A stretch of DNA of 57,075 bases, the filler included, from Sphacelaria rigidula (lineage: Eukaryota), in the NCBI GenBank assembly GCA_964200075.2. It is 8 parts of 8 records of this genome, joined end to end, with 100 filler letters (N's around TTAATTAATTAA, not from the genome) between each part and the next. Parts side by side here need not be neighbours in the genome. Positions count along the whole stretch, not along the records: positions 7,148 to 14,194 come from CAXNAA020016768.1; 7 more parts are not named here. The stretch is one strand, 5' to 3'. The notes beneath the pieces were generated by a model. It was not told the DNA's origin, did no database searches, and was given only the letters and a program-made list of their open reading frames with translations. The translations under genes and the position numbers were made by a program. Shown piece by piece: positions 7,148 to 57,066 of the stretch. How positions within the stretch are numbered: position 1 is the stretch's first letter; every line of letters begins with the position of its first letter.

Positions 7148-7636
7148 ATATCTGCATGGCCCAATGGACGTTGCGAAAAATATGAAATTGCGATTTCGGG
7201 TGGGGGACCTGGACCTGCCAGAAAGAAAGAGATATACCAGTCGTCGAAAGGAGGAGGAAGTGGATGGACGGAACTGCCCCTGTGGCAAGGGAACAGAGAG
7301 CAGAAGTCATATAGTGGCAGGATGTGAAGTACACAAGGAGGAACGGGACGTGCTAGAGGAGGAAATGCGGGACGTGAACAAAGGTGGCATGAAATCCTTT
7401 GATGGATTGGACAGTAGGGAGAAAACGATGGCTATACTGAGAGATAGATGGTGGCGAGAGACGGCGAAACAGGACGGGGATAAGATATGTGAAAAAAAAT
7501 TGTGTAATGTATGGAAGAAACGTAATGAGCGTCGGAATGTTGAAGGTGTCTCTATTAGGAGTAGGAACAGTGATCCGTCTCGAAAGGGATGCGTGGTCAA
7601 TGGTCAAACGACTAAGGCAAGCAACAAATGAGTACG
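7148..7636 (+). mobile_element. LINE (non-LTR retrotransposon) family A, ORF2 C-terminal fragment with CCHC zinc knuckle
   Basis: ORF 7164-7631 has CPCG...ESRSHIVAGC, the typical LINE RT C-terminal CCHC. The stop is followed by only GTACG and then a C-run. The same 3' end recurs at 1-54, 21524-21740(-), 28315-28380, 28409-28475, 42900-43045(-), 52368-52410 and 56911-56977(-); an internal piece lies at ~49860-49929. Confidence 0.8.
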
Positions 7637-7753
7637 CCACCCCCCGAAGCTCATCTTCAGCAGTTCCCGCTACTGGCGAAAGGTCCGATGTATCCTCTCG
7701 AGCGCCCGCTGCCCCGCTCGTCGCCTGTCTCGCGGCTTGGTCTGACGAACAAG

Positions 7754-17425: not shown

Positions 17426-18341
17426 ATGACCCGGGGCGATTTTGTTTCGTTACTCCTGATATGAGGACCGACGCCCGGATGGGCGGGGTGACTCGTGTGC
17501 AGAGTCGAGCTAGGGGACATTGTAGGAGGTTTGGTCGGTGCGGGACACTTGTGTTTTTATTTCCCAAGCCCGACACTACCTGGGTGGGGGGGGTACTTCC
17601 CACCTTGGTGCCTATCCATACATTCGCCAGACACGTCTACCTTCGGGTACTCATGCCTCGCGGGTGGAGCGACTAGGAACGCTGCACGAAACTAAAAGTA
17701 GCGAAGTGCATGGTTTAAGGTTTCTTCCTGTCCTCTGGGGACAAAACAAAAACTCTTGATATCTGGGTCCATCATACCGAGATATAGTTTGTGCATATGT
17801 AGTACATATCTGCTGCTGTGCGCAATACCTTCACGGTGTGCTGCAAACCTCTCGTCCTGGCGGAACTTCTACTTTTTATTCCGTTGTACGCATTTGGGAT
17901 GTTAACCCCCAGGGGCCCAAAGTTTACTCATGTACAGACAGTAACCGGATGTAGGCTTTCTCTACCCTTCCGTCGCGCCTCCGCCCTCCACCCCCTGTGT
18001 TTATCCGTTGATTCGTTTGCGTTCTCATGCCGAGCGAATTTAATGCAGCTTGGAATTATTTTTTTGTTTTTTCCTTGTTGCTGTGGTGTCGTTTAATTGC
18101 ATCCATCTTCTGTTGAATTCCGCCTCTAAGGTTTATACCCTTATTGACGCCGAAGATACATGGTATTCGTTGTGTTCAGTTAGTTTCGATACCCGCCCCT
18201 CCCCCCCCCCCCCCCCCCCCCCCCCCTTTTTTGTTTTTGTTCGCTTTGTTTCGCTTTGACGGTCGTGGTCGCCGTGGCGGTCGTCACCATCGCCTTCGTT
18301 TTGGCTGTCGCTCGGTCGATGTGGTCGATCACCGAACGCCG

Positions 18342-20700: not shown

Positions 20701-21523
20701 GAAGGACAAAACTTGAGAGGAAAAAAGATGCAAACGTAGCGCACCGCGCGTGCCCTGATCAAGAAGGACCGGCTTGCGCTAGAATGCGACACGATTTGGC
20801 AACATTGTTTCTCTGAGTCACAGGATCGCTGCCTGCAGCACGGCTTGCTGCGGGACCGTTTGAAATCTGGTTCCCTTCCCCGCCTAACGTGCTCATGTCC
20901 CCGCCGTCGCTGCCAATACTTGAGCTGCACTGCTGACTGCTGCTCCTACCTTTCGAGTTGTGTATGACCTTTGAGTCTACGAGCGTTTCGCGCGCGTTAT
21001 CAATGAACTCCCAAAGTGACTGCTCGAGTATTTACAAATGCATGATAAATACTGATCGGAGGACGAACCACTGTGATCAACGAACGCTATGGAGGATGTT
21101 ACATGTCCGGAGAGACAAGGAATCAACTGGAAGGGAAACCGGGGTCGGCTATGCTCTCATGCTCACTGATTGAGTCTGGCAAGTGACATTGGCAGCCAGC
21201 TTTCAAACTGTGCATATATTCATCGTCCCCCCCACCTCATCATGATAGGTGGGTAGATATTCCCCCCAGTGAGGCAGTGTAAAAGCCGTGGCTGTCTCTG
21301 GAAGTGGCGATACCACAGAACAGAGCAACTCATTGTAGGCTNNNNNNNNNNNNNNNNNNNNNNNNNNNNNNNNNNNNNNNNNNNNTTAATTAATTAANNN
21401 NNNNNNNNNNNNNNNNNNNNNNNNNNNNNNNNNNNNNNNNNGAGTCAGTCTGGGATATAGGTCGGCGATCTTGGGGGCAGCTGGGGGGGTGCCGTCGGGC
21501 TTGTGGTGGGCGGCGGGGGGGGG

Positions 21524-21740
21524 CGTACTCATTTGTTGCTGGCCTTAGTCGTTCGACCATTGATCACGCATCCCTTCCGAGACGGAGCACCATTCCTACT
21601 CCTACTAGGGAGACCTCCAACATTTAAGCGCCCATTACGCTTCTCCCACACAGAGAACTTTTGCATATCTTGTCCCCATCTTCTTTCGCCGTTTGTGGCC
21701 ACCACATCCACCATATATCTCCTAGTATAGCCACTTTCGT
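21524..21740 (-). mobile_element. LINE family A 5'-truncated copy in an ISWI intron, G-runs on both sides
   Basis: Homologous to 7420-7636; flanked by G-runs 21515-21523 and 21743-21756. Confidence 0.8.
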
Positions 21741-21765
21741 CAGGGGGGGGGGGGGGTTGACTCAC

Positions 21766-24700
21766 CATGGAGGCGATCAGTGGCAGCTTGCTTTTATTCC
21801 TCCCGTATGTCCCGAGGCCTTCCACGAATTTGGTGTAGTCGGGTCGTATCCAGTCGCCGAAACCCTCAGCTATGAGGTCCACCCTTTCCTTCACCTCGTC
21901 CTCGGGCAGCAGCATCACAGAAAGCTCCTCGATTGTTTCCGGGATCTCCGCTTTAGTGTCCTGAGCGGTGATGTGAAGTAGTAGCAACAGTGCGTGCGTG
22001 CGTGCGGGCGGGCGAGCATGCGTTTTTTGTTCATTAGTATTGTTTCTTATTCATCAATCACGGCGAAAAAAATCGGTTGGCGGAAAAAACATGGAAACAC
22101 TCATATACCCAAAGCATCATGAAAAAATATTTGCATGCAATTGAAAAAAAACATACGATGCGGATAGATATTCATATACATACCAGTACACATCATGTGG
22201 ATGTATTCACCTAAACCGTTTTCTTGTCGGTAATCTGCAAGCTCTTTTTTTTGCTCCCGACACGAACATCGATTTCAAAAAGGGGTACTTCTACGTGCAC
22301 TGGCAAAAATAAAAACAACGACCACCACCGCCACCACCACTACAATGACGACCACAATGGACCATGACCGTGACAATAGATCACAGCGAAAATAACACCA
22401 ATACCAACGAGGAAACAAAAATACGGTCTCGCCGAATTCCATCAAGGAAAAAAAAGGGAACACCTTCAGCTCCTTGAACTCGTCTTGCAGCTTCTCCTGA
22501 AGGTAAACGATCCTCTCGCGATCGAACAGGTGGTAATCCCTCATCACCGGCGCTTCCAGCTCCTTGGGCAATTTCACCGCGATTTTCTTCGGCTCTGGTG
22601 GTGTATGTCAAGCATCATGTTCAATTTTTCATTCATTTCTCGCACGTAGATAAACGCACGTTGTACGTTGAGGATATGCCATGTACAACAACACAACGCA
22701 GGAATCTTGCAAGGCGTATGCATTTACGCGTATACATACGTACGCACGCAAGCACGTGCGTATGTATGTTCGGACGTATTCATTTATGAATGTACGTATG
22801 TGCGTACGTACGTACGTACACATGTACTACTTGAATACACACGTGCGTATTATACGCGTATTATACACGTATGCACGCGAATATTTCCATGTATCCAATC
22901 AAACACCTCCTCATCATTCAACCGTCCATCTAGACAAGGCAAAGGTTAAAGACGTACGTAGAGGATCACTTCATTCATGCGAGACAGCCAAGCAAACCAG
23001 TCAACCTGATCAACCATCATACGCGCAACGACATATTTTAGTACAATACTATCATGACCAACACTCGTTTGTTGTGTCGCACTGTTATGTTCGTATGCAT
23101 GACATGCACGTTGTACAAACAAAAGCAGTACACATACCGACAATAAAAATCACTCACTCGTCTTTGGAAGTGCGGAACGAGGAACGACTGTTCATCAATC
23201 CCACAGCGCATCGTGTCCGCGCCATGCACGGTGCATCGAGAAGTAAAAGCAGTACGCACGTACATGGATGCACACGCAAAAAACAAATGAAGAACAAACA
23301 AAAATGGACGACGGGGGCGGGGGTAAGGGGAATAGGAGACAAGGGGTACAAGGAAGGAGAGTAGCAGAGTCAGCCAAGTTGGCGGGGGGAGAAAAGAGAA
23401 AATAGCAAACGAATATGTGGACCATGATGACGGGGGGGGGGGGGGGGGGGGGAATGTGGTCGACGTGCAACTTGTCAACAGTGCAAGAACGACACTATAT
23501 TTTGACTACACAGTAGTCCACAATTGGAGAGCGTAAATTATGACAGGAGGTAGGGAGGGAGGTGGTATCCTTCGTCACCGCGAGCACTTTGCTGCTTCGG
23601 GATCTCATGGGCAGTGTTGTCATAACCCACGCATCTTCCCCGTTGGCTTACTCAACAATCACTACGGTTTCGAAATGTCATGGACAAATAATAATGACAC
23701 ATTGCCTGTTGGGCATGACCCGAAATTTTTCAATGAACGAGATACGGCCGTATCAAAAGCAACAACACTCCTCCTGCGGCGGCGGACTGGCTGCCTACCT
23801 CCGGGCGCTGTGTGTCCATACTTTAGTTATAAAATCTGGGTTCGTTTGGGTATGTATATAAGAGTAGAGCGGAGCACACACAGATTGATAGTCGTAAGAT
23901 AAGTCCGAGATAGAGAAATCTTTGTCTCTTCTTCGGGATCACACAGCTACTATAGCAAGTTGATGGTCGTGGGGCATGACCTCTCGCGGTTCACATCTCG
24001 GGGATGGGATTTTCAGACAGCTATTATAGCAAGTTGATGGCCGTGGGAAATGACCTCTTGCTGCTGCCATCTAGGGGATCGGACTTTCCTCCAGGACCAG
24101 ACAGCCATTATAGCAAGTTGATGGTCACGGGACATGACCTCTCGCGGATACTATTTAACGGACCAAATTTTCCTTCGAGACCAGTCAGCTATTACAGCAC
24201 GTTTATGGTCATGGGGCATGACCTCTCGTGGATGTTAACTCGGGGACCGGACCTCGAATACGGAACCATAGGAACGTCAGGAACATGCTCTCCGCGAAAG
24301 TACCGAAACAAATAGATGAAAAAAAAAGAACAGACGACAGCAGACCTTACACATCGTTCAGCTGAAAAGTAACATCTTACCTTCGAACAGTGGAGAACTG
24401 AAGTATATATCACAGTAAGTCATTCGACAAAAGCTAACCGTCAGAAGTACAACGACAAGTGAAACGACAAGTACAACCACCACCGCCACAAAGGTGATCT
24501 GTATCGCAGATCTGTTCACTCCCCTCTCTCTTGTCTGCTATCGCGTTGTTCCTGGCGTATTATTTTCTCCATTAATACATTTTCTGTAAAGTGAGGAGAC
24601 GTTTTCTTCTTCTCTTCTCTACGGCCCATTTTTGTTTTTTTTCGGCAGCTCTATTCTCACCGACGCGTGGAGCGGGCGGTTGGTACGCCAACACCGCCGC

Positions 24701-26755: not shown

Positions 26756-27861
26756 TTCCATCACAATTTTCCTTGACGCTCGTCTACACCTTCCAGTGCG
26801 TGTAGGTGTACCAACCGCGGTCATACAGAAGGAAGGTCACACAGGAGCTGCGTATTTTTCATGGTTTCCCCCCCCTCCTTTCGCGATGCGAGGTCAATGG
26901 TCTGATGACTGTGGCATGTATGATCATGAATAAACACCCTCGTTCAGCGGTGCTTCCCTTAATTTTTATCGCGAGAAGGATTTGGCCGTCCGTTTTCCTC
27001 ATCGATGATTACATCGATTTTTCATCCATCATATGCTGTCCGCGTTTCATTTGGAGGAGGGGGTGCACTGATGATCTTTCATGCCATAGTCATGAGACCT
27101 CCTCGATCTCGCATCTGTACGAAGCCGGGACGGAGCACGTCGGGTTTTCACCGGCAAGTCACCAAGCGCGAAGCGCCGTGATGTGTTCGGCGAGTCACAT
27201 GAATGGTGAGCTGCATCCTGCAGCCAAGATTGTTCGACTCGAAGCGTACTGATTATCTTGCATATGGTTCACAGACTGCAATGAGATGCTTCATTTTCTG
27301 GTATCGCCGCGTCCAGACGCAGCCATGGCTTACGCCCTGCCTCGTGCGTGTCGCACACGTGAAGGGGGGCGCGACGACAACAACGACGATGATAGCGACA
27401 TCCTTTCAAGCACGTATATACTTGTAAACAGCCGTCAACACAACACGATGTAACTCAGATATACCTGATGGCTGCGAGCATCTCATCCTTCTCTAGCTTC
27501 TTCTCCCCCTGCAGCATGCCCCTCTGGACCACCATTGCATCGAGCTTAAGCTTTTGCTGCGCGCGCTCCACAACCTTCTCTTCGATGGTGTCTTCCGTCA
27601 CTAGTCTGTAAACCTTAACGAAGACAAGAAAAAAAGTAATAGAAACGAAAAACGTATGCAACAAAAAAGCATGTAATCAGAACAAAAAACAAAAAAAATC
27701 AACATGATGCTACTTTACGCAAACGTACGTTATCCTCACGGAAAAGCATGCACAGTACAGTACATACGCTGTTATGCAGTGTATTCAGCCCATGCTGAAC
27801 TCACCTTAACCGTCTTGGTCTGACCAATCCGATGGCATCGGTCTTGCGCTTGCAGGTCCGC
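21766..27861 (-). CDS. ISWI: ISWI-type SNF2 chromatin-remodeling ATPase (partial: end of HELICc through HAND/SANT)
   Basis: Six phase-compatible GT-AG exons: 27861-27805 (ADLQAQDRCHRIGQ, motif VI), 27613-27465 (VYRLVTEDTIEEKVVERAQQKLKLDAMVVQRG), 25171-25000 (FGADAVF...DEDLDAVLERG), 24790-24661 (FIDIGPRERK), 22594-22464 and 21960-21766 (EGFGDW...F...YGR, SANT). Confidence 0.92.
23943..24268. repeat. 84-bp minisatellite (4 units) with a conserved 44-bp half containing GGTCATG-NNN-CATGACC
   Basis: Units start at 23943, 24017, 24101 and 24185; lies inside an ISWI intron. Confidence 0.88.
25904..26174. mobile_element. IR-bounded element with telomere-like repeats; related adjacent copy 26216-26561
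   Basis: IR TATAACCTACCCACGGTTGA / TCAACCATGGGTAGGTTGTA. The internal block TGCACCCC..GCCC..GGGTTCT...TTGGGTT..GGTT(T)AGG is shared with 26444-26499. Confidence 0.6.
26737..27010 (-). mobile_element. Degenerate SINE copy interrupted by a LINE family B 3' fragment (26886-26934)
   Basis: The SINE body resumes after the insert. Degenerate duplicated flanks: ccccctcctttcgcg / caccctcgttcagcg. Confidence 0.65.
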
Positions 27862-28314
27862 CTGTTTTTTTGCGTCATTTTCCAACACACGCACACACGT
27901 GAGTAACGAAAATAATGATTAAAAACACCTGCGCTCTGTGACATATGAACATGATTCGATAGAATAAGCCTGCTCGACTCAAGGACCCAACACGCGTCTT
28001 TCGCTTCTCGAACTGAGCAAAAACACTGTCAAGTATGGCCTACGAGTAAGCGTATACCAGGAGCACAGGACTGCACTTACATTCCCTATTTCATCCTCGA
28101 CGACTTCCACTGAACCAGTGCGTGACATCTAACGCACATTCAGCCCATTTCCAAGCTTGACGCCGAAGACCACCCCCCCCCCCCCCCCCCCCCCCCCCCC
28201 CACCCCCCCCACCACCACCACCCCCCCACGCCCCCCCCCCTCCCCCATCAACACACGGACGCACGCATCTCGTACCCCGCCCCAGCACACAAACACAAAC
28301 ACAGGGGTGAGAAA

Positions 28315-28475
28315 GGTGCCTCATCTCGAAAGGGATGCGTGGTCAAGGGTCAAATGACTACGGTAAACAAAAACTGAGTATCCCCCCCCCACCCCACGAG
28401 TGCCACGAGTGCTCCGTCTCGAAAGGGATGCGTGGTCAATGGTCAAACGACTAAGGCAAACAACACATGAGAACG
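28315..28475 (+). mobile_element. Two stacked LINE family A 3' fragments, each followed by a C-run
   Basis: 28315-28380 with C-run 28382-28390; 28409-28475 with C-run 28476-28488. Confidence 0.8.
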
Positions 28476-28649
28476 CCCCCCCCCCCCCNNNNNNNNNNNN
28501 NNNNNNNNNNNNNNNNNNNNNNNNNNNNNNNNTTAATTAATTAANNNNNNNNNNNNNNNNNNNNNNNNNNNNNNNNNNNNNNNNNNNNCTCCAGTCGACT
28601 ATAGCAGAAACGCTGCCCCGTCCCTGCTGGCGGGGGGGGGGGGGGGGGG

Positions 28650-31600
28650 GGGGCGCGCTTCGTGTCCGAAACTTTTCTCTCGACGAACCCTCGGTATTGT
28701 GCGCAGATTCTCGAGGTCTGGGCATCTCAAAATAACGCGGATTGTTGGTGTCTTCAACACAGCTGCGCAGTATTCTCAAGTATTATCTCTACACTTAATG
28801 CAACACCGCTGAATCAGTCCCAAAATGTCGCTGAATCCCGTGGCTTCCTAACGTGCCGCTCGAATTCTCGCTGCATTCTGGGTGTGCCGATTTTGCATCA
28901 CGATACTGTCGAGGATTGGGAATTTGAGCCTTTTGGTAGTAGGAGTAGTAGAGGTTGCGCCGGGGTTGCATCCGAGACGTCTCCGAATTGGTGGATGATG
29001 CGAATCTTCCCGGCGTTCCCTCCGAAATGCAGCTTCATTGGCTAAAATCAGTACATGGATACAGGATGTATGTTCCAGTTTCATTTCTCGCAGCAAGCTC
29101 ACCATAATCAAAGTTTGATCTTTTTCTCGAGTGTCGCCCCTTCGTTGATTCCCCAGCGATCCAGTCGTGGTCACATAATGAAATGATCTTGTTCAGCCAT
29201 TTTCTGAATGGTGTTCGATGGGCAAGGTGCTAGAGCAAAGCAGTACAGTAGCAGAGTTGGTGCTGGGACAAAACAAATGAAGAACGTCCGTCAATCCGTC
29301 GCCTGCTACCATATTTTCAAGAACATCAAGCAAATGCTGAGGTATTCTCGGAAGTGGCGTGCCAGTCCCCACGACAGAGGAGGATCGGAACCGTACCTCA
29401 CACAAGGCCGCACTAAGAGAGAATTGTTACGTTGTCTGCCGTTGCATGTTCGGTTGGGCTATACCTCCATCATTGTACCTCAACAAACATCTTTGCACGC
29501 AAGATACACCGATCAGCTAGGTGGACACTGTTGTACTGTGCTGTCTGCGTGGCGCCGATGGACACCAGCCATCATGCCAACAACAGCACGACAACCAGCT
29601 ACAGGATAACTGCTGCAATACTCCACAAGAGGGAAAAATTCCTAACGCGCATACAATCTTTCGCCCGGTTCCCATGTTTTGCTCGGGCACCGTGACACAA
29701 CGCACTGGACAGAGCGAAATGCAACACTGGTGAATCATATCCAAACAAATAGCGCGGGCACCGCCCGCAAGACAGGCAGACGCAGCTGTTCAGAAAGCAC
29801 TGGGTGGGACAAGGAGCGGGCTGCGGATGTCATTCATAAAGTGGTTTCTCATGCGGCAGATGCTGCCCGTGCCTGCTGCATTATTTTTTTTTTTGCACGT
29901 AGCCGCAGTACAGTGTCATCAGTACCGTCGTAACGGTCATGATTACACAGGGCCGCGCGCCTGTGTGTGTGTGCATCTGTTGTCACCCCATCGTTTCAGG
30001 ACGACAGCCTCCACTTTTCGGTATATGTGGGCGAATCAGCCGCGGTCATACAGGAGGAACTTAAAACGCAGGATTTTTTTTCTTATTTTTTCGTTTGTAT
30101 TAGCATTCCACCGTTCCTCTACGGCACTTGCCCGATTTTATTATCGCGAGAAGCGTCCAGCGGTTCTCTTCCTTATGGTCGAATTTTTTTGTATCCACGG
30201 CGCAGTCGCTCTCCCCTATTGGGCATGATGTGAGGGGAAATCCCAGATCGTGCGACTTCACCGAGATTTGAACTCGCGTCCCACTCGTAAGAAGGGTTCA
30301 AGGTTACTAACTGAACCACCGGGAAAACCGACTGGCGGAGAAGGCACTATACTGCACCGTATCGCAGCTACTTGTACGTACTACGCACGAAAGCACCGCC
30401 GGGAGTTGTACAACTTTCGCCACGTGCCGCATTAAAGTGCACGTAGCTATAACGAGAATATACACCGCTTTTGAGAGAGTTTCGGAAAAACTTGGACATT
30501 TTTTTCAGGTTCAGGACGCAAGAACTCAAGGATGGGGGCTTTGAAAAACTTCAGGACGTAGACTGGCGTGACGCGGCTTGACGTTACTTCATCGTTCGCA
30601 GCGACTGGCCACAGGTTGCCCCACTTAATGTGAGGTCAACAATCCGATTTGAATAATGCGTAGGCCAGCACAGCCTTGAATAGATAGTGCATCAGAGTTG
30701 TACCGTACCCTACCGTGCCGTACCGTACCGTACCGTACCGTACCGCAATGTGCCGACGGCACGGTACATACAGTACGGCAGTACTTCCATACAACAGACA
30801 TAGCGGCATCGCAACAATTTCCGCAACATGACACCCACAACAGAGGTGGAAGACACTATGATGTCTGACAAAACGGCGATGCGGCCAAGTTTCTGGGCGA
30901 TAGACTACGAATTGTTTACACCGTCTTCTTCCAGCTGAGGCTGGCGATAGCTAGGCGCTGCACCCAAGGTAACGTCTTGAGCGCACCGAGCATCTAAAAT
31001 TCACGCAACACAACCAAGTGAACGCTGATAACATGGCACCGGTAGGGAGATCCCCTGTCTGTGGTGTCAAGGGTGGCTACTTCGTGAAGGGTCCGTGGTG
31101 ATGAGAATGAAAGTTGTGATGAATGTCCCACTTTGCTTGTGAGGGTACATTGATTGTGAACTGGCTGTGATAGTGGTGGTGGGAGCGGTGGTGATTTCTC
31201 TTCGTTCCATCCTGAGTTCTGAAAGGCACTCAAGACTTCAGGATGGACGGCTAAAAGTTGGGCTTCGATCCTGAAAAGTTTATCCTGATTTTTTCTTCAG
31301 GACAAGGGGGCCCACATAAGAATATCACGGCACTACGGTCTCTCCCCTCCCTCCCTCCCAAGGGGTCGAGAATAAGGAAATGACCACATGAGCAGTGCAA
31401 AAATCTTATGTTTCCCGTTTCTCATATACGGAAGTAAACGATCACTCGCATCACCTAGCGTCCGCCTCGACGTGAGCAGCCCCAAACCGAGGAGTTTGGG
31501 TGGATCAGTTGTTCTTGTGGCCGTAGGGGAGCAAATTTGCCGGCTGGATAATGACTTTTGAGTCGCGGTGAAAGCTGCATAATGAGTATTGAATCGCGCT

Positions 31601-35735: not shown

Positions 35736-35790
35736 GTAGGGATGCGAGGTCAATGGTCTTATGACTATAGCATGCATGATCATGAGTACA
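35736..35790 (+). mobile_element. LINE-like family B 3' end abutting C8 run; other copies 44166-44224 and 26886-26934
   Basis: GGGATGCGAGGTCAATGGTCTTATGACTATAGCATGCATGATCATGAGTACA + C-run; collinear with the family A end. Confidence 0.7.
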
Positions 35791-42899: not shown

Positions 42900-43045
42900 C
42901 GTACTCATTTGTTGCTTACCTTAGTCGTTTGACCATTGACCACGCATCCCTTTCGAGACGGAGCACCATTCCTACCCCTAATAGAGACACCTCCGACCTT
43001 CCGGCGCTCATGACGTCTCTCCCATACAATGCACAACCTTTTTTC
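42900..43045 (-). mobile_element. LINE family A 5'-truncated copy
   Basis: Homologous to 7490-7636, with a G-rich run at its 5' junction (43047-43066). There is no C-run at its 3' end. Confidence 0.8.
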
Positions 43046-43159
43046 TGGGGGGGGGCGGGGAGGGGGATACGAATTTGGGACTGGCGATGGCCCCTGGGAA
43101 AATCCATCTCACGGATTCCATTCTTGACACCTAATTTCGCATTTCGAAGTATATCTCAC

Positions 43160-43487: not shown

Positions 43488-44415
43488 GAGAAGAAAACAG
43501 CGAAAAATGAAGAAGCAAGCAGCGACAGCAAGCAGGTGAGGGCATACGAAAAAATGAGAGAGAATCGCATTGCACAGGGTAAATGGCAGTCATAAGAGAT
43601 ATCAATGTTAACAGGATAGCCCCCTCTCGACAACCCGCTGTTTAGGAAGCAGAACATGCTGCTGTACCGCCGAGGTTGATGCAGGATGTAACGGATTGCT
43701 GCCTTGTGTGTGTGCATGTTACAACTACGCAAAGCGCACGACGGTCCGAAAAGGCAATATCACTACGATAGATCGGTGGGTGGGTTGATAATCACACGTG
43801 AAGTCATCCTCCATGAACCCAGCCACGGTCACAAGATACAGGTGTGCACACAATGTGAATACGGTGCATGGAAACGTTACTCAATGACAAGAGAGGTGGG
43901 GGGGGGGGGGGGGGGGGGGGGGCAAGGGGTCTTACTGACGGGGCAATTTGTTTCAGGTTTTCCATCATTTATTTTTTTGACGAGCTGGATTTTTTTCTCC
44001 GACTTGTCCCAAAAAAAAATGAATACTTTCCCGACCGACGCGAGATTTTAGGCGAAAGCTGTACCGTAGTTAGTCGTAAATTGATCTCATATCTGACTCG
44101 GTGGAAGCCAAATGGAAGATAATTAGTAGGCTTCGGGCCGAACAATTTCAGCAGGGTNNNNNNNNCTTTGTAGGGATGCGAGGTCAATGGTCTTACGACT
44201 ATGGCATGCATGATCATGAGTACACCCCCCAACCCCCCAAAACAACGGCACGGGACCCATACATGAGGATGGTTTTGTGGTGAAAGAAACTATTTGCGCG
44301 AAGCGCGATCATGGCTGAGCGTTCAAGATCGGCACCCGGCAGACTCTGAGGACCCGTCTAAAACCAGCCGAAGAACTAAAACATGGAAAATGTCCTGTTT
44401 CACTGTACTACAGCA

Positions 44416-48886: not shown

Positions 48887-51142
48887 TATATGGTCAATAG
48901 ATGCAATAGACAAGAAATGTACCGAGTACAGTATGGACCTATTGCAACTATCGACGGCCGACAATAGTGGCGAGAGGTTTATACTTTACCCAAGGAATGT
49001 ACTGCGTACAGTATGAAGTATTTTTGTCTCTCGCAACAGGCGCAATAGTCGATACTGTACGCTGTACACTTTTTGATCGTGTATTCTTTTGTCCAGGGTA
49101 TGATATCTTCGATGGATCAAATCGCTTGATTGATTGGTCATCCTCCATTATTATTACCAGTTGCTGAGCGGAGCCGCTCCGTGCCAGCTACGAATACAGC
49201 CTCGGTCGGATGGTAGTAATGGGCGTACCCCATTGACACGCAAAACGCTCGTGGAATGGAACTCGACTACTGTACGGATAAATACATCACAAGAACAGCG
49301 CGGAAAAAGTGTCGGGGACAATGTAATAAGAGTTTGAAGAAAAGTGTCACGCATAGTGTGGCACTTGAAAAAAATGTTGGAAAATACAGGAAACAAAAAA
49401 ATCAGCAGTAGCAAAGGGAAAGAGACGCCAACTGTACTACAACCAGCAGCTAAACTCCGGGACGATGCCTCCCCTTTTTATGTTTGAGCCTTTGGAACGT
49501 GGATAATGACCTGGCAGATAGACTACAAACGAGCGGAAGGTCACTCCCAAGTTTTGAAGAAATAACAATTATGAACGCAAAAAAAATCGTGTTCAACAGC
49601 ATATATGTCTCGGCATGCTGTAAAAAGTAACGAAATCCTCGAAGGGAAAAAATGGCTTCAAGCGTAGGAGAGATTGACAAGAAAGGGGTATGGTACAAAC
49701 TGCCGTCTGGGACACTGAGCTAGCTGGCGCCGTGTAGCTGTATCTTGATGAAACAAAAAACTGTAGAACGTTGTGCACGTCGCACAGCTCATTGGCTACA
49801 TGAAGCAGCCGAGGGAAGAGGAGTGCGGGTTACAATTGCAGTTGAAAAAAGAATCTGACTAGAGGGGGAAATGCGAGACGTGAACAAAGGTGGCATGAAA
49901 TCGTTCTATGCACTAGACAGTAGGGAGAANNNNNNNNNNNNNNNNNNNNNNNNNNNNNNNNNNNNNNNNNNNNTTAATTAATTAANNNNNNNNNNNNNNN
50001 NNNNNNNNNNNNNNNNNNNNNNNNNNNNNTTTTATGGCGCCATCGCCAACCGCCGCCAACCCCATCGGGGGTCCGCCCCTACAAAGCCGGGACGGAGCAC
50101 GCCGGGTTCTCGCCGGACCAGGCTAAAGAAACAGGGAGGGGGGGGGGGGTGCAAAAGATGGTCGAGAGGTGGACACACTCGTCGCTCACTGTGACACGTA
50201 TTCAGGGTACTTGGACATGTGAAACGTCGTTCAGATCGACATTCTCCTCCCACTTATCGGTCTGTACATCCGTTCATGTACAGCTCTACCCATTTGCTCA
50301 ACGATAATGCAAAATATTGACAAGAGTAGGGGACTCTTCTAGTGTGCAGGGGAACCCAAGTGCTGTGATGCTTGGAAACATTAACAACATATCGGCGGAT
50401 TGAATGTTCGATTGCTGGCAGTCTACCAGATATTCATTCGTTTCATTGTTTTCCGAATGTTTTCGGAAGAATCGTACGTGATACCTTCGGCATAATTATT
50501 GACCGTGTGCGGTACGGAGAGTAAGCGAGTATGGCTCATCATGCCGAATAAACGATGGGCGTTCCAAAATGCTGATGAGTGGATTTTTCATTTTGTTGCC
50601 TTTTTTACTCAACAGAAACTCCTAGCTGGGCCGCGTTCCCGGTGCACCAGTCAGATAGACAATACTTACGATACGGCGGCGGGCGGGGGGGGGGGGGGGG
50701 GGCGCTTCCTCCGATAGAGGGACATTAATCATTTGTCAATAAAATGTCCCATGAAACTCGTCCAAGGCACTCGTGCTTTCTTATGCATCCCGTTCATACA
50801 AGTGCTGTCCCTCCTTCACGAGTTGAGGTGAACCAACTGTTACAGACACACGAAGCCGGAGCAGCTACAGTGCACGCGTCTCGAAATACAATAATGGTAC
50901 AACAATTCACACATCCAACATATTAACAACAACATGTCAAGAACCGCACGCATATTATGCTTGCACAGTTCGCACAAATTTCCCTTCCCTACCTCAAGTG
51001 CCGTCAAACACACCGTCAAGTCTGCATCCCGTGGGCCTCGAGGTAATCTCGTTTCACACGCAAACTCCGGTTCTTCCGTCTCTATTGGGATAATATGCTA
51101 TTTGTGTGTGTTGGCGTTTGATTCCACGGTTTGAACAAAGTA

Positions 51143-54100
51143 GAGCAAAGAAAGCGAGGGAAAGTGCCCAGGCTCGGCGCCATCTGCTCGCTCAGCTACG
51201 GGCCCACAACATGGTGATGAGGATATGGCGCAGGAGACAGGGAAGAGCACAACTACAGGTGTGGCGGGAAACAACCTGCGTGATCTTTGGCGTTGCCGAA
51301 GCGACAGCAGAGACTGCATATCTGCTTTTGCATCACAAATTTCGAGAACCATGGATGCGTGATCTCACGAAGTTCCTCGGCGATGGCGAGTGGAGGAGCC
51401 CCAAACCCTGAAACGCCCGATACACAATTGCAATAAGCACTAGCCACGCTTGACCTCAACGGGAACGGAAGTCGTCGGTCAACCGATGGGGTGATTGAAA
51501 ACATTCCCGTGGCTAAAAAAACAGTCCCGTGACGAATGTACAAACAAGAGAGAACGGCAGTTCCTTTTTTTCGTCGGTAATGTACCCTACTGGCAACCGC
51601 CCGCACGCGTCCCCTCTCCTAGAAATTACCTCTGAAGGCATAGAGGACAGAGCAGGACAGTGTGGGAGAAAACCCGAAAACGTTGGCCCTGTAAACTGCA
51701 TTTTCAGGGGGGTAGGCTTCCGCACAGCCGGAGCACCGCAAAAGGTAGAGAGCGGCCGGGGGAGGGTAAAAAAAGAACCGAGGGCGGGAACGAGTTGAGA
51801 TCGAGTAAAAAAGACGAGGCCGGCGGGGGGAAGGGGGGGGTAGGGTATCTTTTGGCATGTTTTGGAGAACCCCATTTGTTTTCTTTTGGTTCCCCTACAA
51901 AATGTTATTTTCTATTTTCAGGATCCCCTGTTTGTTCACTGTTTGTGAGATGTATATACCGGCATTGGGCTCGAACTTCCAAATGGAAAAAACGAGTGTC
52001 GGATTTTTTACTGTGAGGAACACTCGTTGAAGAAGAAACCAAATCGCGAAAAAGAGTTCGCGTCGGCATCATCATCAAAAAGGTTAAAAATGGGCACTCA
52101 GTTGATGACAAAAGGGGTACAGTAGATAATGCACAAGAGAATCACCTTATCGATAACGTGATGCGGGTACGGGAGATTCTACGGTAGGTGACTGAGGCTG
52201 CACACTAAGGCCGGAATGTTTGTCACCGACAGGCTCCTAAATAAAGTGCCGATACTTGAAACAAAACAAAATGTGCACCCCTACTGTAGAACCACTCTTA
52301 CCCGGCCGATCTTCTGTCCAGATTACGGAACACTCGACACTTTGTACGATAGCCCCCCCACAAAAAATGGTCAACGGTCAAACGACTAAGGCCAGCAGAA
52401 AATGAGCACGCCCCCCCCCCTCAGAAAAAAAAGTGACCGGTTTCGGGACGCAAAATCTACACGTAAATTGAAATGGAGAAAGCCGAGAACAAGGAGCAGC
52501 CGGAAATTCTCACGCTTGAGTTCGTTTTCGCCAATGTCGCCTATATGAGGCGCTTCATTCAGCCTGAAACTAGACATGAGGCGCTGTATGGCCATTTTCT
52601 TCGTGGCAGTTTTGGGCTGTTTTGTTTTTTGGGGGGGGGGATATCGTAGAAAGTCTCACTCTTGGTTTCCTGTCTCCCGTCGGGAGAACTAGTACATTCT
52701 GTCACTCTCGCACCCCCACCTTCATCATCGTACCATCCCTGCGTGTAGGATGACAATACTACAAAGGTTCGGGGTTCCACGCAACACCGGAGTCGCTGGA
52801 TCACCCTCCCCGCGTGCGCGGTTAGCAGCAAAGACATGGGTGTAGCGTAAGGAGACTCGAGAAGTCAGTATTTTGCCACGTTTGGAAGGGTCGCGCCGAT
52901 CGACCTTCCTGTGGTTGGCCTCCGAGCGGCTTGTATTCTCGTACTGTAAACTCGGTGAGATGGAACTAGGGCGAGGATACATGTTCAAAACTTGACGGAT
53001 ATGTATAGTATATATACATATATACATATATATATATATATCACCCCTTAAGCGACACCTTTGCAGAAAACAACCTCAATGAAAGGCTCCGTTGTGTTAA
53101 AAAAATGTTGGAATTATTTCTGAAAAACCTTGAGCTTTCCGTCAGTTCCTCTCTGTTCGTGACATCCGAACAGAAGTCAAATTATTTATAGGTTCATGAC
53201 CCATACTTTGGCTCCCCCTGCCATATTTCCACATTCCATCTCAACGTAGCACAACAGCACTCCAAAACGCGCCAGGATTATCATGAGCTCCCTCAAAAAG
53301 CAGCAAGCATCGCATGTACAGTGCTATGCAGCCGAGGTGCGTGCTCGCGGTACAAGGGTCATGGGGGCACCAAAATGCACGAAACACGCACAAGTATGCA
53401 AGGGTGGGGCGAATTCATGATTCGTCTAGAAATTACTTGATTTTAGTGTAGTTGATTCGTACCGTACGAATCAATTCTCAAGTTTTGTTTTCAGCGTTGC
53501 AACCCAGATAGGCGCGTCCCAGGGACGCGGATGGCACGAAAATTGCGCAAAGACCTTCTTGACCAGCGGTCAACTTTTTTCTGTCTTTCGAGCAATCACG
53601 CCGGGAAAATCGTAGATTTGGTCATTCGAACCGGCGATGACTCGTCCACATCGTGCGAGTGTTGGTTTTCGGAGGCGCACACCGAAGTGTTTCTGCGGTA
53701 GATTTGATTGATTTTGATTTTGATTTTGATTTTGATTTGAATTTTAATGTTATTATTATTTTTATCTTTAATTTTATCTTTGTTTTTATTGATTGATTGT
53801 GGCACTTTAACCGATGCCCCAGGGGTCATGATCCAGCCGTGGTCACGTGATAAACGTACAATAAATACTCAAGACAAAACAAGACTGAAACTCTCGCTGC
53901 AAAATAAGCGGAAACACCGGGAAAAATGTAGAACAGAACACCGTCATAGGTAGGGGTGCACGTTTTTTATTTATTTTTCTGAGGCTGTGCAGTTTCGGAT
54001 CCTTTCGATGATCAAGATCTGGGCTTTTAGTGTGCAGCCCTCAGAAAACGTTTGGACTCAGATGGGCATCCCTGCCGTGGAATCACCCATTACGCCAAGT

Positions 54101-55122
54101 CGAAAACACAGAAACTCTGCATGGGAGTCGTGGCAAGGCGGGGGAGCACAAATATTTTCTGGGCCGGCGTACTGGAGTTGGAGTATAGACTCTCGCGCAG
54201 TCGCACTATGGTTTAGTCAGCTAGGACGAAGTTTCGTCCGAGCGTGAGCCGATCCTCTCCTCGCAGCCGAACTCCACAAAATCGTAAAAAGTGTTCATTG
54301 CTTTGTTTCTCAAACGTTCAAGTACGTACCCCCAGCATGTTTTTGCCCCCAAAAGTGCAGCCCTAACGGAACATGACCCATGATGGCCCCGGGAAAAGCA
54401 ACGTACCAGTTTTCTCAAGAGACAAGAAGAAAGAAAAGAACCTTGAACAAAAACCATCTACTTGTACGAACAGCGTGCGACAACGACAGAAGTCGGGAAG
54501 CATAGCGCGCTTCCTCACCACGCAAAACGCCCCCCGGCAAGAGTCATGCCACGGTGGGTTCGTACAAAAGATTTTCCCAAGGTTAAATTGTCAGGAGCCC
54601 GCCGTCTTATCCCAAAAAATCAACTCGTGAAACATGTGAGAGTGCGCAGCGATCAGTATTCCAATGATCTAGGGATGATATTTCCAAAGGACATTTAAAC
54701 AGGAAGATCCTGATCCCATATTCTTGTGTGGCTTCGTAGTTGAGGAGCCCATCGATGAGAAGCATCTAGGCGCGAATGTGCAACCCCTATTGTGACATGA
54801 CTCGTCAGAAGAAATGGACGGAAGCATAACTACCAGATGCGGAAGGGTGCAAAGCCACCTCAAGAGTGTTCAACCATTTTTTTTCTCCTCTTACCATCGA
54901 CTTTGGCGTCCTTAATCAGATGGATGCACAGTTACTTTATGCCCCTCTGAAAACAAAAACACTCTATGAAATCGGACTGGGAACGCGTCGGCGTTTTTGT
55001 TTATCGTGCATGCATGCAAGCAGGCGCTGCAAATGTTGAAGGATGAGAGGGCTAACGCGACGGTGCGTATACAAAAGATCTGGAGAGCAGCCATCGCGAG
55101 GAGCACCGCTACGCGACTCAGG
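51143..55122 (+). CDS. Possible IQ-motif protein, scattered small exons
   Basis: Exon-like segments ~51143-51258 (VMRIWRRRQGR), ~53874-53950 and ~55024-55122 (ATVRIQKIWRAAIAR) have plausible splice sites. The model is incomplete. Confidence 0.3.
52335..52658. mobile_element. MITE carrying a LINE family A fragment (52368-52410) inserted in the C-run of its left TIR
   Basis: Collinear with the empty copy 55285-55538 except for the insert and a duplicated C-run/A-run. Confidence 0.8.
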
Positions 55123-55284
55123 AGGTCTGTTCATGCTGTTTCATCCGATCAAGAGGAACCGAAGCGGTGGTACATGAGAGGAAAATTTCACAACACCCCC
55201 GTGTTATCACGAAATAATTGACTGCTGCGCGTTAACTGATCCCCGAGGAACCTAGACATGGAAATTATCCACAAGGTAGACGTA

Positions 55285-55538
55285 CGACACTTTCTACGAT
55301 AGCCCCCCCCAAAAGTGCCTGGTTTGGAGAGGCAAAATGTTCACGAAAATCGAAGTGGAAAAAGCCGAGCACAACGAGCAGCTGGGAATTCTCACGCCTC
55401 GGTTTTTTCTCGCCAATGTCGCCCATATATGAGGCGGTTCATGCAGCCTGGGCCCAAACATCAGGCGCTGTATGTCCATTTTTTTCGTGATATTTTTGGG
55501 CTCGTTTTTTTGGGGGGGGGCTATCGTAGAAAGTGTCG
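55285..55538. mobile_element. MITE with perfect TIR CGACACTTTCTACGATAGCCCCCCCC
   Basis: 26-bp perfect TIRs seen directly. Confidence 0.88.
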
Positions 55539-55809
55539 CAGTACCTAACGTAAACAAGAGGAGGTCATTCGCTGAAGAAAACTGAAGAAAACTGAAGGGT
55601 CGCGCAGACAAACGGCTAAAAGGGAAGACACTCACAAGCGAGCAAGCAAGCACTAGACAAAGAAAGAAAAAAAATGATCGACCTATGCAACATGGCTTCA
55701 GGTGGAGAAGGTCTTGTGCAAAAAAAGCAGATGCACTCACATTCAAACGAAGACAGAAAAGCCGTGGGAACAGATTGTGGCTCAGCAATTTCGATCACAC
55801 TATACTATA

Positions 55810-56021
55810 AATTCGACTTAACGGCCAACGAGGGAAAGGGGCTGCTGTACCCCTCTCGCGATAAAAAATGAAGGCAAGCACCGCAGAAGGAAGGTGGAGT
55901 ACTAAGAACAAATAAAAAGGAAAAGTTCCTGCGTTGACCTTCCTCCTGTGTGACCCCGGCTGGTGCGCCCACATGTACCGAAAGGTGTAGCCCAGCGTCC
56001 AGAATAGATTGGACGACAACA
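55810..56021 (+). mobile_element. 5'-truncated SINE copy
   Basis: Aligns with the SINE body and tail. Confidence 0.8.
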
Positions 56022-56910
56022 CTGCAGGTATGGATGGACTCTCACCCACAACACTGAAGCTCAAATCTCGGTGACGGGGGGGGAGGTACTGTTCCAAATT
56101 CCATTGTTGGGCTACCATGCGTAGTCAAACCTCCATAAATGAGGTTGGTTGACGTGTTGAGACTATAACATGTCGCTGGGCTCGGAGCAGGTGTGCACGA
56201 TGTTTTCGAGAGATCGGCACGAGTTGATCTCGAGTCAGAATAACCGGCCCGACGTGGTAAGTAAGAAAAATGTTGTAGTAAGGAAGCTGAGTGTTGGAAA
56301 TACTCGCAGACCATCTTGCATCCTGACGTACGGGTGTGGAGAAAATGATCGATTCATCTCACGAGTTATCTATGTACGTTGATTGATTTCAGCAGCTAGG
56401 GCAGGTGCTTGCAGAGGCCTCAGTAGGGTTGCTAATGCGGTTCCCCGCCAGTATGTGGCATGATTCGCAGTTTGATGCCTCGCTTCCGTAGGGGTCATGG
56501 GTGAGAGCTCATACCCAAAAATAGTGTGGAAGATATAGATAAACCTCAATCTGCCCCCACGACATTTTTTTTCTTTCTTCTCAATTGGGTATGAACGCGT
56601 GTGCTGTTGCGCAGGACTTTTTTTCCCACCTGAGGCTATGTTGAAAAACCGACCATTCTACTTTTTGTTTTGTTTCGTTTGTTTATTCGTTGTTGTTATT
56701 GCGACTGTTTGTGTACCTTCTTTTTTTTCTTTGAGTCTACTCTTTGTGTCTGTTCCACCATTCTGTTTTTTTCTCACGTACGTCTCGTGTATCTTGTGGA
56801 TAATGACTACGACTGGATCATGACTATCCGCGGGATCACTTCATATGCGAAAATCAACCAATAATTAACCAATCAATCGGTTATAAAAGACCAATAGGGG
56901 GAGGGGGTGG

Positions 56911-56977
56911 CGTACTCATTTGTTGCTTGCCTCAGTCGTTTGACCATTGACCACGCATCCCTTTTCAGACGGAGCAC
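56911..56977 (-). mobile_element. LINE family A fragment with ~22-bp TSD, inserted at the C-run tailing a family C fragment
   Basis: AAAAGACCAATAGGGGGAGGGGG (56885-56907) and AAAAGGCCAATAGGGGAGGGGG (56978-56999) flank it. Confidence 0.85.
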
Positions 56978-57007
56978 AAAAGGCCAATAGGGGAGGGGGG
57001 GGGGGGG

Positions 57008-57066
57008 TGTACTAAAGAGCATGCCTGCCTTGGTCATCAGACCGTTGACCCGGCATTCCCACAAAG
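57008..57066 (-). mobile_element. LINE-like family C 3' fragment between G-runs
   Basis: CTTTGTGGGAATGCCGGGTCAACGGTCTGATGACCAAGGCAGGCATGCTCTTTAGTACA + C-run; collinear with families A and B. Confidence 0.65.

Follow-up and report, generated by a model that had tools for sequence, protein, structure and literature searches.

Runs of C at the 3' ends of a LINE, most likely of RTE-X type, in the Sphacelaria rigidula assembly

The element at positions 7148-7645 of our window is, with a probability of about three in four, the 5'-truncated 3' end of a brown-algal LINE that has a single ORF and an endonuclease of the APE type, most likely belongs to RTE-X, and would insert at runs of C by the mechanism proposed below. 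By the window we mean the whole stretch of DNA that was analysed: 57,075 nt, made up of eight 7047-nt pieces of the Sphacelaria rigidula assembly GCA_964200075.2 with N spacers between them. What carries the reading is the position of the junctions. A C-run adjoins the element end in 11 of the 13 copies in the window and in all five that we recovered from other assemblies, and a C-run stands just before 8 of 10 5' junctions.

The C-run behaviour itself is known from the curation of transposable elements in Ectocarpus, and the value of the present case lies in confirmation in another genome and in a sharper statement. The first-pass annotation of this DNA had not recognised the element as a described one. 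The same behaviour is already annotated in supplementary file 1 of PMC12477816, where RTEX-1_Ec32 (5867 bp) is entered as 'single EN-RT ORF; (C)n 3'' with a 'C-rich' TSD and RTEX-2_Ec32 as '(C)n termini/TSD'. In the table of that paper (C)n belongs to the RTE-X LINEs alone, the other Ectocarpus LINEs being given as (CAA)n for RTE and (CA)n for CRE. The main text (Genome Biol 2025), as distinct from the supplement, has 0 occurrences of 'C-rich' and no discussion of C-run targeting. Our literature search gave no main-text account of a C-run-targeting LINE: the phrase 'poly C' returned none, and the bracketed form 'poly(C)' is unsearchable. A Blepharisma 'poly-C' was considered as a precedent and rejected; it concerns a Pogo inverted repeat and not a LINE.

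The target-specific LINEs known so far insert in rDNA, in telomeres, in genes of small RNAs or in di- to tetranucleotide repeats. Waldo, Mino, Kibi, Koshi and Dong belong to clades related to Tx1 or R1. These five are APE-type LINEs that target microsatellites, namely (ACAY)n for Waldo, (AC)n for Mino, (TC)n for Kibi, (TTC)n for Koshi and (TAA)n for Dong (PMC3812793), and the list of microsatellite-targeting LINEs in that 2013 review holds no mononucleotide case. Our element resembles them, in behaviour only, in being APE-type, in inserting into a simple repeat and in having the repeat on both flanks. It differs from them in its targets, which are mononucleotide runs of C/G dispersed genome-wide rather than a few long arrays. 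Should the stronger and more tentative version of our proposal given below be true, this would be the first LINE lineage characterised as targeting mononucleotide runs of C/G. Aiming at dispersed C/G homopolymers without poly(A) is an unusual way of priming reverse transcription, and such a LINE could serve as a compact model for primer-template pairing in target-primed reverse transcription (TPRT).

The element and its relatives

The longest copy lies on the plus strand, and its 5' side is cut by the piece boundary, since piece 2 begins at 7148. The C-terminus of the LINE ORF fills 7148-7631, with 160 codons in an open frame and a TGA stop (7629-7631) behind them. Behind it, GTACG at 7632-7636 is both a 3' UTR of 5 nt and the fixed 3' terminus of the element, and the C-run CCACCCCCC (CCA, then C6) abuts that end at 7637-7645. 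The frame contains a CCHC knuckle, C-x-C-x8-H-x4-C, whose four residues (C43, C45, H54 and C59) are the same in all 11 sequences that were aligned. The first-pass annotation had read both the knuckle and the 5-nt 3' UTR correctly.

The 160-aa product matches the C-termini of longer public proteins at 59-78% identity and, at 70%, residues 1200-1360 of a full-length relative of 1360 aa, P0004. That relative is a single chain in which an Exo_endo_phos domain (APE-type endonuclease) occupies residues 170-414 and an RVT_1 domain (reverse transcriptase) residues 740-989; the E values for P0004 and for P0010 are 3e-12 and 8e-15 for the endonuclease, and 1e-30 and 2e-32 for the reverse transcriptase. 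An APE endonuclease N-terminal to the reverse transcriptase in one protein is what the full-length relatives have, the window copy amounting to the last 160 aa, and this answers, for the relatives, the earlier question of whether the endonuclease is of the APE or the RLE class. The best solved relative of P0004 is human L1 ORF2p (E 6.6e-21). On its own the window's 160-aa fragment gave no Pfam match, nor did nine of the ten other long frames of the window; the tenth had a sub-threshold TPR_19 match alone. At the DNA level the entire 1360-aa frame is present in the contigs L001 and L005. The L005 element is at least 5.15 kb long with its 5' end not reached, and the two are alike up to the first bases of L001, so the full-length 5' end and its duplication cannot be read.

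The closest named proteins come from Sphacelaria rigidula, as a chimeric gene model, and from Ectocarpus sp. CCAP 1310/34. Between the Ectocarpus proteins and the full-length relative identity is 47-71%, and the C-terminal motif is the same in both; by the published annotation of these relatives, RTE-X is the most likely home of our element. The traits agree: a single EN-RT ORF, a 3' (C)n, C-rich target-site duplications, and short partners with a common 3' end. Going by the descriptions in PMC12477816, RTEX-1/2_Ec32 likewise have a brown-algal host, a single EN-RT ORF, (C)n at the 3' end and a C-rich TSD, and at 5.5-5.9 kb they compare with the 5.15 kb or more of L005. In sequence they differ from it. 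The best full-coverage Ectocarpus match is 57% identical, which makes our element a member from another brown-algal lineage. The public runs that contain the sequence bear the label of a coded organism or of an 'algae metagenome'. From these labels and the sequence relationships the host is very probably a brown alga.

Protein-guided scans found four loci in metagenome contigs and two in genome contigs. Viral contigs yielded nothing, either to the protein-guided scan or to a DNA pattern of the 3' domain. The MAG behind L005 holds no copy beyond that of L005 itself, and the fetched loci were likewise without further copies.

Copies in the window and their junctions

BLASTN with 7148-7645, together with an nhmmer profile of the last ~67 nt, places 13 copies of the 3' end in pieces 1, 2, 4, 6, 7 and 8, that is, in six of the eight; neither search found a copy in pieces 3 and 5. 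The first-pass count of 12 copies on seven of eight contigs was slightly off. The copies run from 43 to more than 480 nt and have one common 3' terminus, as a 5'-truncation series does. They fall into three families that have their last ~60-80 nt in common: family A, the coding LINE, ends in GTACG, and families B and C end in GTACA and, when read in the family A frame, are stop-free up to the C-run. An AGTACG-like match at 54321 was dismissed as chance and is not counted as a copy.

Besides the longest copy, family A is represented on the plus strand by a 3' end at 1-54, which BLASTN finds cut by the piece start and which has C12 behind it (55-66); by a copy at 28303-28381, with C9 behind (28382-28390) and no C-run of 7 or more within 20 nt of its 5' end; by a copy at 28409-28475, in tandem behind the last and followed by C13 up to the piece end; and by a 43-nt fragment at 52368-52410 in the arm of a MITE, between repeats made of a C-run plus an A-run (52353-52367 and 52411-52432). 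On the minus strand are a 5'-truncated copy at 21524-21742, with C9 on its 3' side (21515-21523) and C14 on its 5' side (21743-21756); a copy at 42900-43046 that has no 3' C-run but has, on its 5' side, a C-rich stretch ending in C9 (43047-43055); and a 67-nt fragment at 56911-56977 between repeats of a C-run plus 17-18 bases (56885-56910 and 56978-57007). Position 56977 is a 5' truncation point, because contigs leaving the window there run on into LINE sequence.

Family B contributes two old copies. One, at 26878-26937 (plus strand), has C8 then TC on its 5' side (26868-26877) and CCC then TC on its 3' side; the other, at 27067-27137 (minus strand), is B-like, was found by nhmmer and has C5-T-CC-T-CC at its 3' side. 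Two further family B 3' ends lie on the plus strand, one at 35736-35790 with the terminus GTACA and C8 behind, the other at 44166-44224, after an N8 gap, with C6-AA-C6 behind. The 3' end of family C at 57008-57065 (minus strand) finishes in GTACA; it has C13 at its 3' side, and its 5' side is C-rich up to the window end. In addition to the 13 copies there is an internal LINE fragment found by BLASTN at 49851-49929 (plus strand), which runs off the piece end and whose 5' junction is without a C-run, and a 5' head of the short family B at 50077-50124 (minus strand). The head has its 5' terminus at 50124, with C12 lying 10 nt upstream (50138-50149), and its 3' part is lost.

We scored a 3' junction as positive where a run of at least 5 C begins within 3 nt of the element end. 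The 11 of 13 that do so compare with a background of 0.73%, counted across the window's own 112,006 oriented positions, for a binomial P of ~2e-22. The two exceptions are 42900, which as the first-pass annotation had noted has no C-run, here over the 17 nt that remain up to the piece end, and the old copy ending near 26937, with CCC only. The five external copies, from four metagenome contigs and one contig out of a bin with a bacterial label, all read TGA, then GTACG (CTACG in one, L003), then 8-13 C, once interrupted. The earlier description of an AGTAC(G/A)-type end followed by a C-run holds in the window and outside it. So does the absence of poly(A): an A tail was seen on 0 of the 13 window copies and 0 of the 5 external ones, and the window copies have no simple-repeat tail. 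The element thus falls outside the L1-like, poly(A)-dependent class. A further view of a 3' junction comes from contigs that leave the window at 56897/56909 (runs X1, X3, X4 and X5), drawn from four public runs of two studies with 29-141 contig ends per row. Their consensus is a plus-strand G-run 14-20 long, which on the element strand is a C-run.

For the 5' side, where positions were set by eye from alignments, we asked for a run of at least 7 C ending within 20 nt upstream. Such a run is present at 8 of the 9 junctions tested, against a background of 0.90%; adding the 49851 fragment makes it 8 of 10, with 28303 and 49851 as the exceptions. First-pass annotation had reported C-runs before several truncation points, which is borne out. 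The 5' runs measure 14, 9, 7, 13, 8, 9 and 12, and those on the 3' side are mostly 8-13. Three copies are bracketed by direct repeats of ~10 to 30 nt that include the C-run together with 2 to 17-18 further bases: 52353-52367 with 52411-52432, 56978-57007 with 56885-56910, and 26868-26877 with 26938-26942. Across 21524-21756 the repeated part is the C-run alone (C14 and C9), which makes the range over all the direct repeats 0-18 bases besides the run.

Could the association simply follow from the abundance of C/G runs in this genome, or from artefacts of sequencing and assembly, poly-G read ends for example? The genome is certainly run-rich, with 44 C/G runs of 7 or more in 56.4 kb where composition predicts ~5, some nine times more, and several copies do sit at piece ends. 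We nevertheless regard this explanation as very improbable. The P value of the 3' junctions was obtained against that run-rich background, and the internal copies are bordered on either side by unique sequence. The same junction recurs in all five contigs of other assemblies and in contigs of four runs from two studies, and contigs of three runs span the insertion at 52368-52432; the external junctions and the spanning contigs exclude a sequencing artefact. A (C)n junction is in the published Ectocarpus library too (PMC12477816).

The C-run LINE may in turn help to explain the ~nine-fold excess. Some of the window's runs are orphans, 18-29 nt of C or G without a recognisable LINE end adjoining, and these lie at 18201-18226, 28173-28201 and 43898-43922, with others at 23432-23452, 28632-28653 and 50685-50702. 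They may be targets of long ago, what is left of insertions truncated in the extreme, or something different.

Target, tail and a proposed mechanism

The MITE copies in the window tell us what one insertion site looked like. An intact copy of ~257 nt at 55284-55540 has two inverted arms, each with C8-9 then A4-7, and provides a paralogous empty site; a second copy, at 52333-52660, carries the LINE fragment in its left arm. The three other arms have C8-10 plus A4-7, uninterrupted, and so the C-run was there before the LINE arrived. The empty site for the 52368 insertion is paralogous and not orthologous. No orthologous empty allele was seen: the three runs with a contig over 52368-52432 all carry the insertion, and among the joints listed from contigs of four runs there is none that skips an insertion. 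As an aside, the inverted arms of the MITE are ~30 nt long and the element is itself very abundant, with a summed contig depth of ~2.6e5 against ~30 for single-copy sequence.

The first-pass annotation had proposed that the C-run is the target and not a tail. The first half stands, in that the run pre-exists and is duplicated: comparison of the sequences supports a C-run that was present in the target and lies inside the target-site duplication. The second half is less clear-cut. As far as sequence goes, a layout of C-run, X, element, C-run, X would suit a duplication whose first part is the C-run just as well as a C tail set down directly behind an earlier C-run. Under both readings the insertion site is chosen by the C-run.

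The tail version would have the run at the 3' end as a (C)n tail borne on the element's RNA, with the duplication starting after it and the 5' runs as pre-existing sequence, in many cases the tails of older copies, beside which nicking is preferred. There is something to be said for it. RTEX-1 is curated as having a '(C)n 3'', and other LINEs end in a simple repeat, (CAA)n for RTE and (CA)n for CRE in Ectocarpus (PMC12477816). The repeats can be read without the C-run, as 52360-52367 with 52421-52432 and as 56978-56994 with 56885-56902, and in the tandem cases the upstream C-run is simply the run behind the older copy. Two independent copies of family A, moreover, open their C-run with the same CCA interruption (7637-7645 and 56903-56910), a hint that some of the C's are copied from the RNA, that is, from the donor's flanking run. 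Yet a nick placed after the C-run would leave a primer complementary to unrelated bases and unable to pair with a C tail. The 3' runs are no longer than the 5' runs, and this likeness on the two sides argues against a long extra tail; 21524-21756 repeats the C-run and nothing else. Nor could a pure tail model do without a C-run in the target, given the 8 of 10 5' junctions and the uninterrupted MITE arms. On balance we consider a tail of this kind unlikely.

We favour a duplication that starts with the C-run, because it supplies a primer, the G-run, that is able to pair. Our best reading is a compromise of the kind that L1 represents, in which the G-run would prime on RNA whose last few bases are C's of the donor's run. 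The endonuclease would nick the G-strand at the end of a G-run, and the 3'-OH of that run would prime reverse transcription at the 3' end of the RNA. A second nick, a few to ~18 nt beyond the C-run, would leave the C-run duplicated. The RNA probably ends, through read-through, a few C's into the run that flanks its source copy, and its terminal C's could form pairs with the G primer in the way that the poly(A) of L1 does with the T's at its nick. The conserved 3' stem-loop may be the handle that the reverse transcriptase recognises. Each insertion would turn one C-run into two, and the family would in this way multiply its own targets.

Such self-multiplied targets would explain tandem arrays in the order element, C-run, element. 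The window has two pairs of this sort, 28303-28475 and 56911-57065, each a copy inserted in the C-run behind another, and in many contigs of three to four runs the 5' end of family B is joined directly to a G-run and a 3' end.

In mammalian L1 a T-rich nick site is paired with the poly(A) tail. Our element is like L1 in having an APE endonuclease with a reverse transcriptase, in its 5' truncation and in the mobilisation of short non-autonomous partners; it is also like L1 in its variable duplications that start with the homopolymer at the 3' end, and with them comes the same ambiguity between tail and target. The differences are equally plain. The homopolymer is of C and not of A, with neither poly(A) nor a polyadenylation signal; just 5 nt make up the 3' UTR; a single ORF takes the place of two; and the partners share a specific 3' domain, as in recognition of the stringent type, and not just a tail.

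A stronger version of the proposal has the endonuclease and reverse transcriptase of this brown-algal RTE-X element truly specific for G/C runs, the G-run priming on RNA without poly(A), the C-terminal peptide doubling as an RNA handle, and the family having seeded the C/G-run excess. We offer it tentatively, at somewhat less than even odds. If it is true, the family may itself have sown much of the host's excess of C/G runs, with one target duplicated at each insertion.

Short partners, the 3' domain and stray copies

Three LINE families had been described at first pass. Three sequence families with a common 3' end there are, and at least one of them, family B, is no LINE. Its 5' terminus lies ~48 nt upstream of the common 3' domain. 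At 50122-50124 hundreds of contigs per run break, with continuations that are unlike one another and G-rich, and in the contigs that leave the window at 50077 the sequence goes on with the 3' domain of family B. With a defined 5' terminus so close to the 3' domain, family B is a non-autonomous element of ~107 nt. In the copy whose 5' head is at 50077-50124 the usual 3' domain is missing, with 50030-50076 in its place, which indicates a local deletion or rearrangement adjoining the piece boundary.

Ectocarpus has comparable partners. PMC12477816 describes RTEX-N1, of 607 bp, which 'can be present in tandem' and has a 60-bp 3' end in common with RTEX-1/2, and RTEX-N2, of 188 bp, which 'could be SINE'. 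Like ours, these are short non-autonomous partners that share the last 60-100 bp and occur in tandem arrangement; at 607 and 188 nt they are unlike the ~107 nt of family B. RTE-X and its partners are also given in that paper as the most abundant families of Ectocarpus. Judged by contigs of four runs, nothing else in our window is nearly as repeated as the LINE family with its short partners, which have a summed contig depth of ~1.8-1.9 million against ~30 for single-copy parts, a figure that is a depth and not a copy number. Two more repeats of high depth in all four runs, at 53320-54024 and 55670-56139, reach ~2e4 to 8e5 against the same ~30.

What the three families have in common is the 3' domain of ~60-80 nt, at 7565-7636 (plus strand) in the longest copy, defined by the nhmmer profile and RNAalifold. 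In 13 sequences, taken from the three families and the external copies, a 5-bp stem is kept and a 4-nt loop varies, which suggests that the domain forms an RNA stem-loop; none of the 11 pairs predicted by RNAalifold has a compensatory double change. A stem-loop that served as a handle would explain how short families that are non-autonomous but have this 3' domain of 60-80 nt were mobilised on so huge a scale. In family A the stem-loop overlaps coding sequence. The ORF there closes with VVNG, two residues and an alanine-rich end, retained in relatives that are ~40% identical (P0014-P0023 and P0036), and it is the conserved last 10-15 residues (7590-7628 in the window) that overlap the stem-loop. 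The overlap suggests a joint constraint on protein and RNA.

In practice, assemblies break at the C-runs of these elements, which also leak into gene models and 'bacterial' bins. Pieces of the LINE turn up in records labelled as bacteria or as genes of algae (L005, L006, P0005, P0001 and P0077). Those labelled bacterial are a MAG contig, a 330-nt contig of Hyphomonas oceanitis SCH89 and a Parasphingorhabdus MAG protein; the algal ones are chimeric gene models, of which the one from Sphacelaria is a lipase_3 fusion and the one from Ectocarpus an ABC protein. They look like contamination and annotation artefacts.
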